A stretch of DNA of 56,452 bases from Corynebacterium sp. (GTDB taxonomy: Bacteria > Actinomycetota > Actinomycetes > Mycobacteriales > Mycobacteriaceae), in NCBI RefSeq assembly GCF_012838985.1, contig NZ_DUOE01000050.1:1-56452 (forward strand), given 5' to 3'. A program made the position numbers and the translations under genes. Below the pieces are notes generated by a model. The model worked only from the letters and a program-made list of their open reading frames with translations, was not told the DNA's origin and made no database searches. This document shows positions 1-8,276 of the stretch, in pieces (the first letter of the stretch is position 1; every line of letters starts with the position of its first letter).

Positions 1-230
1 ACCACCTCACCGCCTGGGCCCAGGGCGGCAACACCAACATCAGCAACCTGACCATGTTGTGCGGGGTGCACAACGCCCGCAACGACGATGACCCGGACAA
101 ACCCCCGAAACACGGGCGGATGGAACGGGCCCCGGGTGGGGTGGTCCATCACCCACCGGATGGTGGTCCGCCCCGGCGGAACATCCACCCGATACGGCGC
201 TTATCCGCCATGGCCCTGATCAACCGTTAG
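1..230 (+). CDS. 3' end of an HNH endonuclease signature protein (DUF222/HNH-like), 5'-truncated by the window
   Basis: Frame from nt 3 reads HLTAWAQGGNTNISNLTMLCGVHNARNDDDP...LINR* (TAG 228-230). H-x-x-x-W-x-x-GG-x-T-x-x-x-NL-x-x-LC-x-x-H is the HNH motif. Not in the ORF track. Confidence 0.8.
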   Translation, partial: HLTAWAQGGNTNISNLTMLCGVHNARNDDDPDKPPKHGRMERAPGGVVHHPPDGGPPRRNIHPIRRLSAMALINR

Positions 231-238
231 AAAAGCAG

Positions 239-273
239 CAGGCGCCAGACCCCGTCATGGGGTCGGGCGCCTG
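239..273. terminator. Hairpin between the convergent HNH and CsoR-family genes
   Basis: CAGGCGCCAGACCCC-gtcat-GGGGTCGGGCGCCTG; on the minus strand it is followed by CTGCTTTT. Confidence 0.6.
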
Positions 274-284
274 GCAGGGCTCTT

Positions 285-542
285 CTACGCCAGGGAGAGG
301 AACATCCGCTCGAGCTTCTTCTCGTCGAGCTCGGAGCCCTCCGAGGTGAAGCACTTCTTCATTCCTGTCGAGACGATGAGGTAGCCGGCCCGGTCGATGG
401 CCTTGGCCACGGCCGAGAGCTGCATGACTGCGTCCTCGCACTCCTGGCCCTCCTCGAGCATGCGGATGACAGCCTCGAGCTGTCCCTTCGCGCGCTTGAG
501 GCGGGTGACGGAGGGCTTGACCTCTTCCGGAGTGAGCTTCAT
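285..542 (-). CDS. CsoR/RcnR/CstR-family transcriptional repressor (85 aa)
   Basis: MKLTPEEVKPSVTRLKRAKGQLEAVIRMLEEGQEC...QLSAV...GMKKC; RLKRxxGQ motif; Cys35 and Cys64. Start taken at ATG 542, 10 nt after the upstream stop. Confidence 0.9.
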   Translation of the reverse strand: MKLTPEEVKPSVTRLKRAKGQLEAVIRMLEEGQECEDAVMQLSAVAKAIDRAGYLIVSTGMKKCFTSEGSELDEKKLERMFLSLA

Positions 543-552
543 GTTACCGATC

Positions 553-2166
553 CTAATTCCGTGACAGCTGGCCATGGGTCCATGTCACATATCCGCCATC
601 GAGGTTTGCCGCCTCGATGCCCAGGTTGCCCAGGAGACTGCAGGCCACGTGTCCGCGCAGGCCGACCTGGCAGTGCACGAGGACCTTCTTGTCCCTGAAT
701 GTATCTGCATTGTTCCGGAGGTCGTCAACCGAGACGTTGACGGCTCCCGGGATCTGGCCGCGCTGGAACTCGCCCGGGGTACGGACGTCGACCAGGGTCC
801 AGCCGTCGGCGAGTGCCTCGTCGAGTTCGTTCCACTGGAAGGTGCGCTCGCCCTGGACCATGTTGTCGTTGATGAAGCCGGCCATGTTGATCGGGTCCTT
901 GGCGGAGCCGAACTGCGGCGCGTAGGCCAGTTCGAGGTCGGCGAGGTCGGTGGCGGTGAGGCCGGCGCGCATGGCGGTGGCGAGGACGTCGATACGCTTG
1001 TCGACACCGTCGCCACCCACCGCCTGCGCACCCAGGATGAGGTCGGTGTCGGCGTCGACGATGACCTTGAGGTGGATGGTCTCCGCGCCCGGGTAGTAGC
1101 CGGCGTGGTTCGCCGGGTGCAGGTGGATGACGCGGATGTTCTTTCCGGCACCGCGGGCGCGGCGCTCGTTCCAGCCGACGGAGCCGGCGGCGAGGCCGAA
1201 CACGCCGACGATGGCGGTGCCGAGGGTCGGGGTGCGCTGCACGTCGCGGCCGGTGATGATGTCGGCGACCAGGCGGCCGTGACGGTTCGCGGTCTGGGCG
1301 AGGGGCACGAGGGTGTCCTCGCCGGAGACGTGGTCGGCCTTCTCGGCGGCGTCGCCGACGGCGAAGATGAGCGGGTCGGAGGTGCGCTGCTGGTCGTCGA
1401 CCTTGATGCCGCCTCGTTCGCCGACGGCGAGGCCTGCGGCGACCGCGAGTTCGTTCGCCGGGCGCACGCCGATGCTGGCGATGACGAGGTCGGCGGGGAC
1501 GACGCGGCCGTCGGCGAGCTCCAGGGAGTCGGCGCCGATGGTGGTGGTGTCACCGTCGGTGATGACGGTGATGCCGTTGTCGGTGAGCTGCTTCTCGACG
1601 ATCGCCGCCATCTCCTCATCCAGCGGGGTGAGGATCTGCGGGGCACGCTCGATGACGGTGACGTCGAGTCCGCGGTGACGCATGTTCTCCGCGACCTCGA
1701 GGCCGATGAAACCGCCGCCGATGATGGCGACCGACTTCACGTCGTCGGTGAGTGCCGCGATGATGGCGTCGACGTCCTCGATGGTGCGCAGGTGCAGGGC
1801 ACGCCCGATGCCGGGGATCGGCGGGACGATGGGGGTGGCACCCGGGGACAGCACCAGGTGGTCGTAGGTGATGGTGTCGCCGGTGTCCGTGGTGACGGTC
1901 TGCTTCCCGCGGTCGATGGCGGTGGCGCGGGTGTTGACCCGCACGTCCAGGTTGAACCGCGCTGCGAGGGACTCCGGGGTCTGCAGGAGCAGGGAGGAAC
2001 GCTCGGGGATGACGCCCGAGACGTGGTAGGGGAGTCCGCAGTTGGCGAAGGACACGTGGCCGGAGGCCTCGAGGACGATGATCTCCATGTCCTCGTCACG
2101 ACGACGCAGTCGGGCTGCGGTGGACATACCGCCGGCGACACCGCCGACAATCACAGTGGTGGTCAT
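553..2166 (-). CDS. CoA-disulfide/persulfide reductase with C-terminal rhodanese domain (CoADR-RHD)
   Basis: GGVAGG FAD motif, SFANCGLPY redox Cys, GGGFIGLE NAD motif, YAPQF, and a C-terminal DVR...HCQVGLRG rhodanese loop. Confidence 0.92.
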   Translation of the reverse strand: MTTTVIVGGVAGGMSTAARLRRRDEDMEIIVLEASGHVSFANCGLPYHVSGVIPERSSLLLQTPESLAARFNLDVRVNTRATAIDRGKQTVTTDTGDTITYDHLVLSPGATPIVPPIPGIGRALHLRTIEDVDAIIAALTDDVKSVAIIGGGFIGLEVAENMRHRGLDVTVIERAPQILTPLDEEMAAIVEKQLTDNGITVITDGDTTTIGADSLELADGRVVPADLVIASIGVRPANELAVAAGLAVGERGGIKVDDQQRTSDPLIFAVGDAAEKADHVSGEDTLVPLAQTANRHGRLVADIITGRDVQRTPTLGTAIVGVFGLAAGSVGWNERRARGAGKNIRVIHLHPANHAGYYPGAETIHLKVIVDADTDLILGAQAVGGDGVDKRIDVLATAMRAGLTATDLADLELAYAPQFGSAKDPINMAGFINDNMVQGERTFQWNELDEALADGWTLVDVRTPGEFQRGQIPGAVNVSVDDLRNNADTFRDKKVLVHCQVGLRGHVACSLLGNLGIEAANLDGGYVTWTHGQLSRN

Positions 2167-2172
2167 ATGAGG

Positions 2173-2190
2173 ATGCTACCCCCGGGGTGT
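2173..2190 (-). promoter_or_regulatory. Putative leaderless -10 (TAGCAT) overlapped by a CsoR-type G/C-tract operator
   Basis: Minus strand reads ACACCCCGGGGGTAGCAT-cctcat-ATG(2166). The -10 is 6 nt from the start codon and there is no SD. Confidence 0.55.
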
Positions 2191-2358
2191 CTAGCGGCCG
2201 AAGATGCCGGCGAAGATGCCCGGCTTCTTGTCGGCGGCGGACTCGGTGCAGGTGCACCACTGGTTGTCCGGCACGGAGGCCTTCACCTGGTCAATATGCT
2301 GGCCGCAGCCGCTCCAGGTGGTCTTGTTGCAGGACGGGCAGTTGACGGGACGGCACAT
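2191..2358 (-). CDS. Small cysteine-rich protein (55 aa), unknown function
   Basis: MCRPVNCPSCNKTTWSGCGQHIDQVKASVPDNQWCTCTESAADKKPGIFAGIFGR*; AGGAG SD 6 nt before the ATG; G/C-rich third codon positions; below the ORF-track size cutoff. Confidence 0.85.
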   Translation of the reverse strand: MCRPVNCPSCNKTTWSGCGQHIDQVKASVPDNQWCTCTESAADKKPGIFAGIFGR

Positions 2359-2406
2359 GGGTTACTCCTGTGGGGTTGTTGGGGGTCCGTGAATATTACG
2401 AGCCCC

Positions 2407-2437
2407 AATATACCCCCCAGGGTATCCACTTTGGCAA
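2407..2437 (-). promoter_or_regulatory. CsoR/CstR-type operator ATACCC-N4-GGGTAT overlapping a putative promoter
   Basis: ATACCCCCCAGGGTAT at 2410-2425. On the minus strand TTGCCA (2437-2432) and TATATT (2412-2407) flank or overlap it. Confidence 0.75.
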
Positions 2438-4246: not shown

Positions 4247-5521
4247 ATGCGCGTCGCGATGATCTCCATGCACACCTCTCCGCTCGAGCAGCCGGGCTCG
4301 GGGGACGCCGGTGGCATGAACGTCTACGTCCTCAACACCGCCCGGGAACTGGCCCGACAGGGGGTGGAGGTGGACATCTTCACCCGCGCCACCCGCCCGA
4401 GTCAGGGGGAGGTGGTGGACGTCGAGAAGGGGCTGCGGGTGATCAACATCGTCGCCGGCCCCTACGACGGCCTCGAGAAGGAGGCGCTGCCCACGCAGCT
4501 GGCCGCCTTCGCCGGCGGCATCGTGCAGTTCCACCGCTGCCACGACGACGTGGACTACGACCTCATCCACTCCCACTACTGGCTGTCCGGCCAGGTCGGC
4601 TGGCTGCTCCGCGACCTGTGGGAGGTGCCCCTGGTCCACACCGCGCACACCCTCGCGGCGGTGAAGAACGCCCACCGGGGCGACGACGACTCCCCGGAGT
4701 CCGAGGCGCGGCGCATCTGTGAGCAGCAGCTCGTCGACAATGCGGAGGTGCTCGTGGTCAACACCCAGGAGGAGACCCTCGACCTCGTCGACCACTACGA
4801 CGCCGACCCCGACCGCATCGCCGTGGTCACGCCCGGCACCGACGTGGAGCTGTTCACCCCGGGCACGGACCGCAACACCGAGCGTGCGCGGCGTCTCCTC
4901 GGCATCCCGCTGGACGCCGAGCTGGTCGCGTTCGTGGGCCGCCTCCAGCAGTTCAAGGGTCCGCAGGTGCTCATCCGGGCGACCGCGGAGATGCTCCGCC
5001 GCAACCCCGAACGCAAGCTGCGCGTGATCATCTGCGGTGGTGCCTCGGGTGCCGCCACCACGGAGCGGCAGTACATGAATCTGGCCGCTGAACTGGGGGT
5101 TTCCCGGAGGGTCCGGTTCCTGGACCCGCGCCCGCCGGAGGAGCTGGTGGCCATCTACCAGGCCGCCGACATCGTCGCCGTGCCCAGCTACAACGAGTCC
5201 TTCGGCCTGGTCGCCATGGAGGCGCAGGCCTGCGGCACCCCGGTGGTCGCCGCCCGCGTCGGCGGTCTGCCGGTCGCCGTCTCCGAGGGGGAGACGGGAG
5301 TGCTTGTCGACGGCCACGACACCGGCGACTGGGCCGACGCCCTGGAGAACCTCCTCGACGACGACGACACCCGCCTCCGGATGGCGGCCGACGCCGTCCA
5401 CCACGCGGCGAACTTCTCCTGGTCGAACTCCGCCGCACAGCTGGCCTCGGTGTACTCCGAGGTGCTGAGCCTGGAGGTCGACAACTGTCCGGAGCGTCGG
5501 GAGCGGGCCGACGGGCTCTAA
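4247..5521 (+). CDS. mshA: D-inositol-3-phosphate glycosyltransferase (mycothiol biosynthesis)
   Basis: [56 protein letters not shown]; TATCAT 6 nt before the ATG (leaderless-like). Confidence 0.96.
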
Positions 5522-5573
5522 ACGGGGGGTATTAATCCGCACGCTACCGGCGTAAACGTGGCATATTGGAATC

Positions 5574-6320
5574 ATGACCAACGGAAAGCTCATTCTTCTT
5601 CGCCACGGGCAGAGCCAGTGGAACAAATCGAACCAGTTCACCGGCTGGGTGGACGTTGACCTGACCGAGCAGGGCATCGCGGAGGCCGTCCGCGGCGGCG
5701 AGATGCTCAAGGAGGCCGGCCTCCTGCCGGACATCGTCTACACCTCCCTGCTGCGTCGTGCCATCCGCACCGCGAACATCGCGCTCAACGCCGCTGACCG
5801 TCACTGGATCCCGGTCGTCCGCGACTGGCGTCTCAACGAGCGCCACTACGGTGCGCTGCAGGGCCTGGACAAGGCCGCGACCAAGGACAAGTACGGTGAC
5901 GAGCAGTTCATGGCATGGCGTCGTTCCTACGACACCCCGCCGCCGGAGCTGGCCGACGACGCCGAGTACTCCCAGTCCGACGATGTGCGCTACGCCGCCC
6001 TGGAGAACGCACCGCGTACCGAGTGCCTCCTGGACGTCGTGAAGCGTTTCATCCCGTACTACCAGGAGGAGATCGAGCCGCGCGTCAAGCGTGGCGAGAC
6101 CGTCCTCGTCGCGGCGCACGGCAACTCCCTGCGCGCGCTGGTGAAGCACCTGGACAACATCTCGGACGAGGACATCGCGGCCCTCAACATCCCGACCGGC
6201 ATCCCGCTGGTCTACGAGCTGGATGCTGACGGCAAGGTCGTCAACCCGGGCGGCACCTACCTCGACCCCGAGGCGGCCGCCGCCGGTGCTGCCGCTGTCG
6301 CAGCGCAGGGTGGCAAGTAG
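5574..6320 (+). CDS. gpmA: 2,3-bisphosphoglycerate-dependent phosphoglycerate mutase
   Basis: [30 protein letters not shown]. Confidence 0.97.
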
Positions 6321-6330
6321 CCTGTAGGGC

Positions 6331-7584
6331 GTGTCCGCCGTTCTCGCGTTCCTGTTGGGCGTCGCCGTCACCGGCGTCGCCCTTCCGGCGTTGAACTGGG
6401 CACGTAAGCGGATAGTCCGCCACCGGTCCTCGGCCACGCTCGAGGACAACCAGGTCACCACCGTCGGCCAGGTCCTGCACCTGGCCATCCAGGGATCCCC
6501 CACGGGAGTCACCGTCGTCGACCGCGGCGGTGAGGTGATCCTCTCCAACGCCCGTGCCCACGAGATGGCCCTCGTCCACGACCGCACCCTCAACGAGCAG
6601 GTGTGGCAGGTCGCGGAGGAGGTCTTCGGGGACAAGGAGACCCGCACGCTGGATCTCTCCATGCCTTACCGACGCACGGGCAACCGCGTCTCCTCCGTGC
6701 GCGCGCTGGTCAAGCCGCTGACGCTCGTCGACGACCGCTTCGTCATCATCTACGGCACCGACGAGAGCGAGAACGTGCGCATGGAGTCCGCCCGCCGTGA
6801 CTTCGTGGCGAACGTCTCGCACGAACTCAAGACCCCGGTCGGCGGCATGGCACTGCTGGCCGAGGCCCTCCTGGAGGAGGTCGACGACCCGGATCACGTC
6901 CTGTACTTCGGTCAGCGCCTGCACAAGGAGGCCCACCGTATGGCGGGCATGATCAACGAGCTCATCTCGCTGTCGAAGCTGCAGGGCGCGGAGCCGCTGC
7001 CGGAGATGGAGCCCGTCTCCGTGGACGACGTCATCGACGAGGCCTTCACCCGCAACCAGGTCGCCGCCGACAACGCGGACATCACCCTGACCAAGGGCGC
7101 CGACTCCGGGGTCTTCGTCATGGGTGACAAGTCCCTGCTGGTCACGGCGGTGTCCAACCTCATCTCCAACGCGATCAACTATTCGCCGCAGTCGGTGCCG
7201 GTGTCGGTGTCCCAGAAGGTGGCGAACGCCGACGTCGTGCTCATCCGCGTCACCGACCGGGGCATCGGAATCTCCCCCGAGGACCAGAAGCGTGTGTTCG
7301 AGCGTTTCTTCCGCGTGGACAAGGCGCGTTCCCGTTCGACGGGTGGTACGGGCCTGGGGTTGGCGATCGTCAAACACGTGGTGGCCAACCACGGCGGTAA
7401 CATCAAGGTGTGGTCCCGTCCTGGTACGGGATCCACGTTCACCATCGAACTCCCGATTCATCATCCCGACCCTGCGCCGCCCGTGTTGACGGCGACGGGG
7501 CAGGATGATGAGGCACCATCCACCGGAGCACTGCGTCAGGCGGTGTCCCGGGTGGCGACACGTCGAAAGGACAAAGCATCATGA
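6331..7584 (+). CDS. senX3: Sensor histidine kinase, SenX3/CgtS4 type
   Basis: DFVANVSHELKTP H-box, N-box NLISNAINY, GTGLGLAI G-box; lies between gpmA and a RegX3-like regulator. Confidence 0.9.
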   Translation: MSAVLAFLLGVAVTGVALPALNWARKRIVRHRSSATLEDNQVTTVGQVLHLAIQGSPTGVTVVDRGGEVILSNARAHEMALVHDRTLNEQVWQVAEEVFGDKETRTLDLSMPYRRTGNRVSSVRALVKPLTLVDDRFVIIYGTDESENVRMESARRDFVANVSHELKTPVGGMALLAEALLEEVDDPDHVLYFGQRLHKEAHRMAGMINELISLSKLQGAEPLPEMEPVSVDDVIDEAFTRNQVAADNADITLTKGADSGVFVMGDKSLLVTAVSNLISNAINYSPQSVPVSVSQKVANADVVLIRVTDRGIGISPEDQKRVFERFFRVDKARSRSTGGTGLGLAIVKHVVANHGGNIKVWSRPGTGSTFTIELPIHHPDPAPPVLTATGQDDEAPSTGALRQAVSRVATRRKDKAS

Positions 7585-8276
7585 CGACGACCATCCTCAT
7601 CGTCGAGGACGAAGAGTCTCTCGCCGATCCGCTGGCGTTCCTCCTGCGCAAGGAGGGCTTCGAGGTGATCATCGCCGGCGACGGTCCGACGGCGCTGGTG
7701 GAGTTCGAGAAGAACGACATCGACATCGTGCTGCTCGACCTCATGCTGCCCGGCATGTCCGGCACCGACGTGTGCAAGCAGCTGCGGACGACCTCCTCCG
7801 TCCCGGTCATCATGGTCACGGCGCGTGACTCCGAGATCGACAAGGTCGTCGGCCTCGAGCTGGGCGCGGACGACTACGTGACCAAGCCGTACTCCTCCCG
7901 TGAGCTCATCGCCCGCATCCGCGCGGTGCTGCGCCGGGGCGCGGACAACGAGAGCGCCGCCGACGACGTGGACGAGCAGGTCCTCGAGGGCGGCCGCGTC
8001 CGCATGGACGTCGAGCGTCACACGGTCACCGTCGCCGGCGAGCCCGTGCCGATGCCGCTCAAGGAGTTCGACCTCCTGGAGTACCTCCTGCGCAACTCCG
8101 GCCGTGTGCTCACCCGCGGTCAGCTCATCGACCGGATCTGGGGCGCCGACTACGTGGGCGACACCAAGACCCTCGACGTGCACGTGAAGCGCCTGCGCTC
8201 CAAGATCGAGGAGGAGCCCTCCCGACCGAAGCACCTGGTCACCGTCCGCGGCCTGGGCTACAAGTTCGAGGCCTGA
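7581..8276 (+). CDS. regX3: OmpR-family response regulator, RegX3/CgtR4 type
   Basis: Receiver LLDLMLPG, GADDYVTKPYS; winged helix WGADYVGDTKTLDVHVKRLR; ATGA overlap with the kinase. Confidence 0.92.
   Translation: MTTTILIVEDEESLADPLAFLLRKEGFEVIIAGDGPTALVEFEKNDIDIVLLDLMLPGMSGTDVCKQLRTTSSVPVIMVTARDSEIDKVVGLELGADDYVTKPYSSRELIARIRAVLRRGADNESAADDVDEQVLEGGRVRMDVERHTVTVAGEPVPMPLKEFDLLEYLLRNSGRVLTRGQLIDRIWGADYVGDTKTLDVHVKRLRSKIEEEPSRPKHLVTVRGLGYKFEA

Follow-up and report, generated by a model that had tools for sequence, protein, structure and literature searches.

In Streptomyces coelicolor, the CsoR-family protein ScCsoR (SCO0620) is described in the accessible text of PMC7533328 as an autoregulated repressor that binds the operator ATACC-n6-GGTAT and is released by polysulfide through persulfidation of Cys37. 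The available part of a sequence similarity network (SSN) study places ScCsoR, together with Rv1766, in cluster 3, a largely uncharacterised group of actinomycete x-C-x-C candidate persulfide sensors (PMC8643695); for Rv1766, the accessible literature offers hypoxia co-expression only and is uninformative (PMC4916473). The switch is known but little studied in actinobacteria, and a 2024 review, in its available sections, calls the donor chemistry of sensors without the wedge asparagine unknown (PMC11672702). Here we describe a locus of this kind in a window of 56,452 nt from Corynebacterium sp. (NZ_DUOE01000050.1; contig C186 of a 2.4-Mb genome, 93% complete), where three genes encode a Cys-rich microprotein, a fusion of CoA-disulfide reductase (CoADR) and rhodanese, and a CsoR-family repressor. 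From their arrangement the genes most likely form a single operon, and comparative sequence evidence indicates that this is probably a persulfide-responsive CstR operon heading a dispersed reactive-sulfur regulon.

With the ScCsoR circuit (PMC7533328; cluster 3, PMC8643695), this system shares two repressor cysteines 29 residues apart, the absence of the histidine, the same 16-bp operator, likely autoregulation, and persulfide dioxygenase (PDO) and TauE among the genes preceded by the operator box. It differs in that the repressor gene comes last in an operon with CoA-persulfide reductase (CoAPR) and the microprotein, PDO and TauE are encoded in trans, and the predicted regulon adds peroxiredoxin, VKOR, TsoY and DUF2202. 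The cst operons of Enterococcus faecalis and Streptococcus mitis (PMC9405070, PMC8643695; structure 8a56) likewise combine a CstR-type repressor with a CoADR-rhodanese fusion, but their repressors belong to cluster 10 (wedge Asn) rather than cluster 3 (Gly), their single rhodaneses RhdA/RhdB stand where our locus has the microprotein, the host here makes mycothiol, and the S. mitis operator is one base longer. A microprotein homologue maps to the “small hypothetical protein” that the available text of Romaniuk et al. (2018, PMC6305408) lists in the SUL module of an Antarctic Arthrobacter plasmid, although that module has no CoAPR and, as far as this text goes, the small protein was not analysed. 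Copper CsoR/RicR regulons (Tan et al., 2014, PMC3902906) have the same repressor fold and a similar G/C-tract operator, but with a C-H-C site, TAC-X9-GTA sequences and copA/copZ targets, and they form a separate system in this genome.

Judging by the accessible parts of the sources (PMC7533328, PMC8643695, PMC9405070; reviewed in PMC11672702), the sensor, the operator and the enzyme all belong to known kinds; what is new is the combination of a cluster-3 CstR with a CoAPR and an unnamed microprotein at the head of a seven-site regulon. The initial annotation had proposed an autoregulated reactive-sulfur module with a His-less CstR-type repressor in a mycothiol-using host. The comparative evidence below supports this proposal well, and the window also carries mshA, which scores above the TIGR03449 cut-off. 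For actinobacteria, however, precedent had been published in the ScCsoR operator and in the prediction of cluster 3 as persulfide sensors (accessible text of PMC7533328 and PMC8643695).

Repressor class and operator

The repressor scored 71.7 bits against PF02583 (cut-off 22.8), and its best matches in the PDB were SpCstR (7mq1) and MtCsoR (2hh7). As initially annotated, it carries Cys35 and Cys64, 29 residues apart, with Gly60 in place of the histidine, an x-C-x-C fingerprint. Glu34 stands where copper CsoR has its second-shell tyrosine, and the C-H-C pattern is absent; Gly60 aligns with Asn55 of SpCstR, and the wedge asparagine of cluster 10 is absent as well. The same trio in C. spheniscorum and in C. 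argentoratense includes an 87-aa orthologue, with 60% and 68% identity to the repressor, respectively. Proteins of this length from both species appear in the cluster-3 rows of Table S1, as available (PMC8643695), and we placed the repressor in cluster 3 by this proxy, the orthologues having been matched by species and length rather than by accession. A phylogeny bore out the assignment: in a tree of 86 rows and 87 columns, from which 7 duplicate or fragment rows were omitted and in which no sequence is biochemically characterised (ScCsoR is not in the tree), the repressor split from 8 C-H-C proteins at 100/100, formed a 99/90 clade with the C. spheniscorum protein and also grouped with the C. 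argentoratense orthologue. On these comparisons, we place it among the actinobacterial CstRs, of which Streptomyces ScCsoR is the type. The same genome encodes a second CsoR, of C-H-C type, on contig C4. Larger genomes of the genus (G004, G017, G468, G537 and G547; loci L023 and L026) carry a more distant x-C-G-C repressor (C-G-Y in one), no perfect 16-bp box and no microprotein match, possibly reflecting a different regulon.

The palindrome upstream of the trio, ATACCC-N4-GGGTAT, is an exact fit to the published ScCsoR site. It had been noted as overlapping a -10-like hexamer, and it does overlap TATATT, spanning most of the -35/-10 spacer and the start of the -10. A search of the window alone with one mismatch allowed returned 2 matches, a count equalled in 11 of 100 shuffles, and therefore the window alone does not establish the box. 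The genome, however, holds seven perfect copies against 0.008 expected from 6-mer frequencies, which puts the box beyond chance. In a simple sigma-70 scan of the window the promoter of the trio was not detected, because its -35/-10 spacer is 19 nt. TAnnnT occurs in the same register as TATATT in 53 of 68 distinct homologous boxes, and a TTG hexamer lies at 19 nt in 19 of the 68, at 17 nt in 11, at 18 nt in 6 and at 16 nt in 1. The 19-nt spacer is the commonest arrangement at these boxes and is unusual for a simple repressed promoter. In three relatives the -10 is only 7 nt before the microprotein ATG, a placement compatible with leaderless transcription.

The box tracks the repressor across the genus. 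It precedes the microprotein gene in 23 of 26 chosen Corynebacterium loci, and the three without it are from repressor-less genomes. Among 200 Corynebacterium genomes, a perfect box was found in 66 of the 78 with the repressor versus 10 of the 122 without it, and a reversed-pattern control matched in 10 of the 200. Five genomes with the microprotein but without this repressor type had no box at all; four of these carry a C-H-C CsoR.

A second operator, annotated initially at 2177-2190, is doubtful, and we rejected it as a conserved site. The tract is one base short, one of its half-sites is mismatched, and among 27 aligned Corynebacterium loci, drawn from chosen and mostly trio-bearing genomes, it is present in only 2 (the window and G027); in the next-closest genome, G487, the G-tract is lost. 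TAGCAT before coaP is retained in the three closest genomes, and the region 2173-2190 could at most act as a weak internal promoter or operator. Two Agromyces loci (L079:3797-4190 and L108:4095) have an N3 box, one base shorter, before coaP and the repressor gene, a possible shift in operator spacing.

Predicted regulon

The seven perfect N4 boxes lie at genes for PDO-rhodanese and TauE (contig C80), TsoY (C20), VKOR (C149), peroxiredoxins (C160 and C168) and DUF2202/PALP (C174), and at this operon; all of these are sulfur, thiol-redox or uncharacterised genes. The initial statement that the system lacks Sqr, PDO and TauE holds for the operon but not for the genome, which encodes PDO and TauE on a different contig, preceded by the same box, and also has an unboxed gene for an SQR-like flavoprotein (C87:605-1894; L183). 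The TsoY-family membrane protein gene (C20:6107-7452; L112; NF047644 above cut-off) has one perfect and one single-mismatch 16-bp box upstream, which suggests, from sequence, a reactive-sulfur role for this uncharacterised (seleno)protein family. The TsoY gene of G487 is boxed too (L179). On C174 (5382-7075; L116), the box lies between divergent PALP/SbnA-like and DUF2202 genes; DUF2202 is boxed in G027 as well and lies downstream of the microprotein gene in L039. Near-identical peroxiredoxin genes (PRK13189-like) at C160:918-2730 and C168:3443-4261, each boxed and each downstream of a similar ABC-type gene, are possibly a duplicated cassette, and a SLAC1/TDT channel gene follows the peroxiredoxin of C160. 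The boxed VKOR-family gene (C149:3671-4328; L113) is conserved in G027 and G487. A YeeE/TsuA thiosulfate transporter gene fused to a TusA/YeeD domain (C189:6334-7698; L182) has no perfect box. The locus would connect reactive-sulfur stress with two unnamed families, TsoY and DUF2202, and with a microprotein that is very common yet unannotated.

The copper genes of this genome carry a different box. Four copies of TACCC-N5-GGGTA lie before copA, copZ, a P1B-ATPase/CueP pair and CopC, and copper CsoR sites have the form TAC-X9-GTA in the available text of PMC3902906; the spacing at the window's box is X8, while the X9 boxes are at copper genes. Across 89 other loci, 8 of 11 N5 boxes were assigned to copA, copZ or a C-H-C csoR, against 0 of 88 N4 boxes. 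The locus is a compact test case, its predicted seven-site regulon differing from the copper regulon in operator spacing by a single base.

Reductase, microprotein and competing explanations

The best PDB match of the fusion enzyme was 8a56, the E. faecalis CoA-persulfide reductase EfCoAPR (E 2e-156), followed by 3nta and 3icr. Both Cys42 and Cys508 of EfCoAPR are required for turnover in a swinging-pantetheine model with CoA held as a cofactor, according to the accessible part of PMC9405070. In the window's enzyme, a CoADR domain with its redox cysteine is joined to a C-terminal rhodanese domain with its active cysteine: Cys43 (in SFANC), Cys499 and Arg504 correspond to Cys42, Cys508 and Arg513 of EfCoAPR. 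These three residues are invariant in 27 of 27 loci, as are the basic residues Arg19, Arg21 and Arg22, to which we ascribe a CoA-phosphate role. The score against the mycothione reductase model TIGR03452 was only 102.9 (cut-off 635.65). By homology, the enzyme is likely a CoA-persulfide reductase.

The microprotein has the motif C2-x4-C7-x2-C10, W15-x-G17-C18-G19-x-H21, then C35 followed by Cys or His, and a hydrophobic/basic tail. Cys2, 7, 10, 18 and 35, His21 and Trp15 were invariant among 114 sequences. We found 1,221 relatives among 50%-identity clusters at E<=0.001 and estimate 2,500 stretches in GTDB. Pfam and NCBIfam have no family for it, the 114 members giving scattered weak matches (best E 0.003); a PDB sequence profile search returned chance-level matches only, and the known sulfur carriers TusA and DsrE gave no profile or fold match. 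The AF2 model comprises a beta-hairpin and a helix (pLDDT 76-84 over the first 40 residues; mean 75), for which Foldseek found nothing at E<=0.001 and VIA-align nothing at Z>=2, a result that does not show a new fold. Metallothioneins have a very high Cys content and few aromatics; the microprotein, with 6 Cys in 55 residues, an invariant Trp15 and a predicted hairpin-helix fold, does not resemble the MymT type. A complex prediction with the rhodanese domain and Zn scored 0.10. The tail pattern is present in 109 of 114 members and presumably resembles the MinD membrane-targeting helix. A C-terminal amphipathic membrane anchor was not supported: the hydrophobic moment beat shuffles in only 2% of sequences, 149 of 1000 column permutations equalled it, and some members are tailless. 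Tailless members in L078 (6001-6126) and L067 (6001-6135) stop just past the last Cys/His.

Neighbouring genes place the microprotein with sulfur enzymes. We surveyed 78 non-duplicate loci from the best 80 of 587 confirmed GTDB matches, and within 6 kb of the microprotein found the repressor in 49, CoAPR in 24, PDO in 20, TauE in 14 and a separate rhodanese in 12. An N4 box was present in 61 and at least one regulon link in 75. The repressor or a rhodanese, PDO, TauE or CoAPR gene lay within 6 kb in 63 of the 78, compared with 2.3% of random 12-kb windows of this fragmented genome. The initial suggestion that the Cys-rich first gene stands in for PDO and TauE fails, since those genes have the same box and are encoded in trans here, and lie next to the microprotein gene in other genera. 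Within the 200 genomes of the genus, the microprotein occurs in 68 (one weak, one with internal stops), of which 62 have the repressor, and in 53 of the 55 with coaP; all three genes lie within 2.5 kb in 37. More widely, 43 of 401 Actinomycetota genomes contain the microprotein, counting the genome of the window, and the family extends to records of Polyangiales and Deltaproteobacteria.

Two paralogues per operon, often flanking a thioredoxin gene, are present in L046, L052, L090, L091, L094, L101 and L108. The microprotein is found on 75 plasmid records, most of them from Rhodococcus and Clavibacter, and in many cases the record lists no gene there. Apparent fusions (31 longer proteins) were not counted, as the 18 inspected look like read-through or frameshift of rhodanese, TauE, MMPL or CoAPR neighbours. 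A literature search, made mostly without subscription journals, found no study of the microprotein or of a Corynebacterium CstR.

By analogy with ScCsoR, the x-C-G-C repressor would occupy the 16-bp box across the -10 and come off it once Cys35 is persulfidated or cross-linked to Cys64, and it would autoregulate the operon. As in the E. faecalis enzyme, the donor would be a cellular persulfide, which may be that of mycothiol; its sulfane sulfur would pass to rhodanese Cys499, and bound CoA would carry the sulfur to Cys43/FAD, where NADH would reduce it to H2S. CoA is held as a cofactor in that model, and a mycothiol host could therefore load sulfur through the rhodanese cysteine. The PDO/TauE branch would oxidise and export sulfur, and the microprotein, made first, would take up sulfane sulfur and be unloaded by rhodanese domains. 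If the regulon is as proposed, we tentatively suggest a sulfur acceptor or carrier role for the microprotein, as a small zinc-thiolate domain built on 5 Cys, His and Cys/His. We favour this role because its enzyme neighbours nearly all contain rhodanese and because its pairing with coaP persists without the repressor and box. It is doubtful that the whole unnamed family, across actinobacteria, myxobacteria and probably fungi and plants, consists of small zinc-thiolate carriers of sulfane sulfur that pass zero-valent sulfur from mycothiol or protein persulfides to rhodanese domains, so that a reductase with bound CoA can remove persulfide from a mycothiol-using cell. If the microprotein does carry sulfur, it would represent a new carrier class that may reach eukaryotes.

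Within the same regulon, the microprotein could instead buffer Zn or Cu against mis-metallation under sulfide stress and never carry sulfur, which we regard as somewhat unlikely; other roles make up the remaining probability. Its seven potential ligands fit a buffer, the last varying between Cys (33 of the 114 sequences) and His (the other 81), as is typical of a metal ligand; the weak Foldseek matches, at E 4 or more, are without exception zinc fingers, and one member is named a Zn-ribbon protein in one source. The tight linkage to coaP, retained in genomes without the repressor, and the presence of copA in only 5 of the 78 loci argue against this role. A different possibility is that the repressor senses thiol oxidation in general (H2O2, hypochlorite or disulfide stress), with persulfide as one inducer among others. 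Peroxiredoxins and VKOR are among the boxed targets, thioredoxin and AhpD/CMD genes neighbour the microprotein (9 and 5 of the 78 loci), and CstR quickly forms disulfides with H2O2 in vitro, but the dominant partners in the survey are persulfide-specific and ScCsoR, with the same box, is released by polysulfide in the available account, making this reading improbable. That the operon is a copper-resistance unit under a copper CsoR, with the microprotein as a MymT-like metallothionein, is highly improbable: CsoR-family operators are alike (the ScCsoR site resembles CsoR and RicR sites) and the protein is small and Cys-rich, but the repressor lacks both the His and the Tyr before Cys35, copper CsoR sites have exactly the form found at this genome's copper genes, and genomes with only a C-H-C CsoR have no 16-bp box.

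Several observations weigh against the persulfide-responsive operon and regulon as we propose them. The perfect box is absent from 12 of the 78 repressor genomes, and the genomes are related rather than independent, so the co-occurrence counts overstate significance. Of the N5 boxes in the 89 loci that were not at copper genes, one lies at a microprotein gene (L069) and two have no assigned gene, and the S. mitis cst operator has the N5 form, making the spacing rule local rather than universal. The regulon includes general thiol-redox genes (peroxiredoxin and VKOR here; thioredoxin and AhpD-like in other genera), H2O2 reacts rapidly with CstRs in vitro, and the sensor group without the wedge Asn may prefer other donors. 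The enzyme scored 427.9 against TIGR03385 (CoA-disulfide reductase), below the cut-off of 578.8, although this was still its best model. In one large-genome genus the microprotein was detected in none of 11 genomes, including two that carry this type of repressor, and the Atlas neighbours of one divergent member were mostly Ascomycota and Streptophyta, a single lead on which the eukaryotic range of the family rests. Given these look-alikes in fungi and plants and the absence from a genus with the repressor, the role of the microprotein need not be sulfur-specific.

Features of the locus

Table 1. Positions of the genes and candidate regulatory elements in the window.
Feature	Position	Strand	Evidence or remarks
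Candidate -35 hexamer TTGCCA	2432..2437	-	Sequence; 19 nt before -10
Predicted 16-bp operator ATACCC-N4-GGGTAT (ScCsoR/CstR type)	2410..2425	.	Fits ScCsoR site ATACC-n6-GGTAT
-10 hexamer TATATT	2407..2412	-	Overlaps downstream arm of operator
Ribosome-binding site AGGAG of microprotein gene	2365..2369	-	Sequence; similar sites before most homologues
Microprotein gene, 55 aa	2191..2358	-	Cys2, 7, 10, 18, 35, 37; His21
Degenerate 13-bp G/C tract and TAGCAT, 6 nt before coaP ATG	2173..2190	-	Tract in 2/27 loci
CoADR/rhodanese fusion (CoAPR, coaP-like), 537 aa	553..2166	-	Pyr_redox_2, dimerisation and Rhodanese domains
CsoR-family x-C-G-C repressor, 85 aa	285..542	-	PF02583 E 6.6e-20; Cys35, Gly60, Cys64
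GC-rich hairpin with short U-run	226..285	-	-39 kcal/mol, z -7.9

The open reading frames, domains and flanks confirmed the initial layout of three co-oriented genes, in the order microprotein, CoAPR and repressor on the minus strand, between a partial HNH-like gene (Pfam E 0.005, under the cut-off) and fadD (PRK05605 above cut-off). The gaps are 24 nt between the microprotein and CoAPR genes and 10 nt between CoAPR and the repressor, and a less likely alternative start for the repressor, an upstream ATG at 575, overlaps coaP. None of 200 shuffles was as stable as the hairpin past the repressor gene, which likely ends the operon, facing the convergent HNH-like gene; a simple terminator scan did not list it among its terminators. 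The locus is covered by contigs from RNA libraries of compost and sludge, but some extend across fadD as well and may be DNA, so the contigs show neither transcription nor the limits of the operon. Elsewhere in the window, positions 4247-8276 hold mshA, then a gene resembling phosphoglycerate mutase and a pair encoding a sensor kinase and a response regulator, which we take to be gpmA and senX3/regX3, in an ordinary conserved context.

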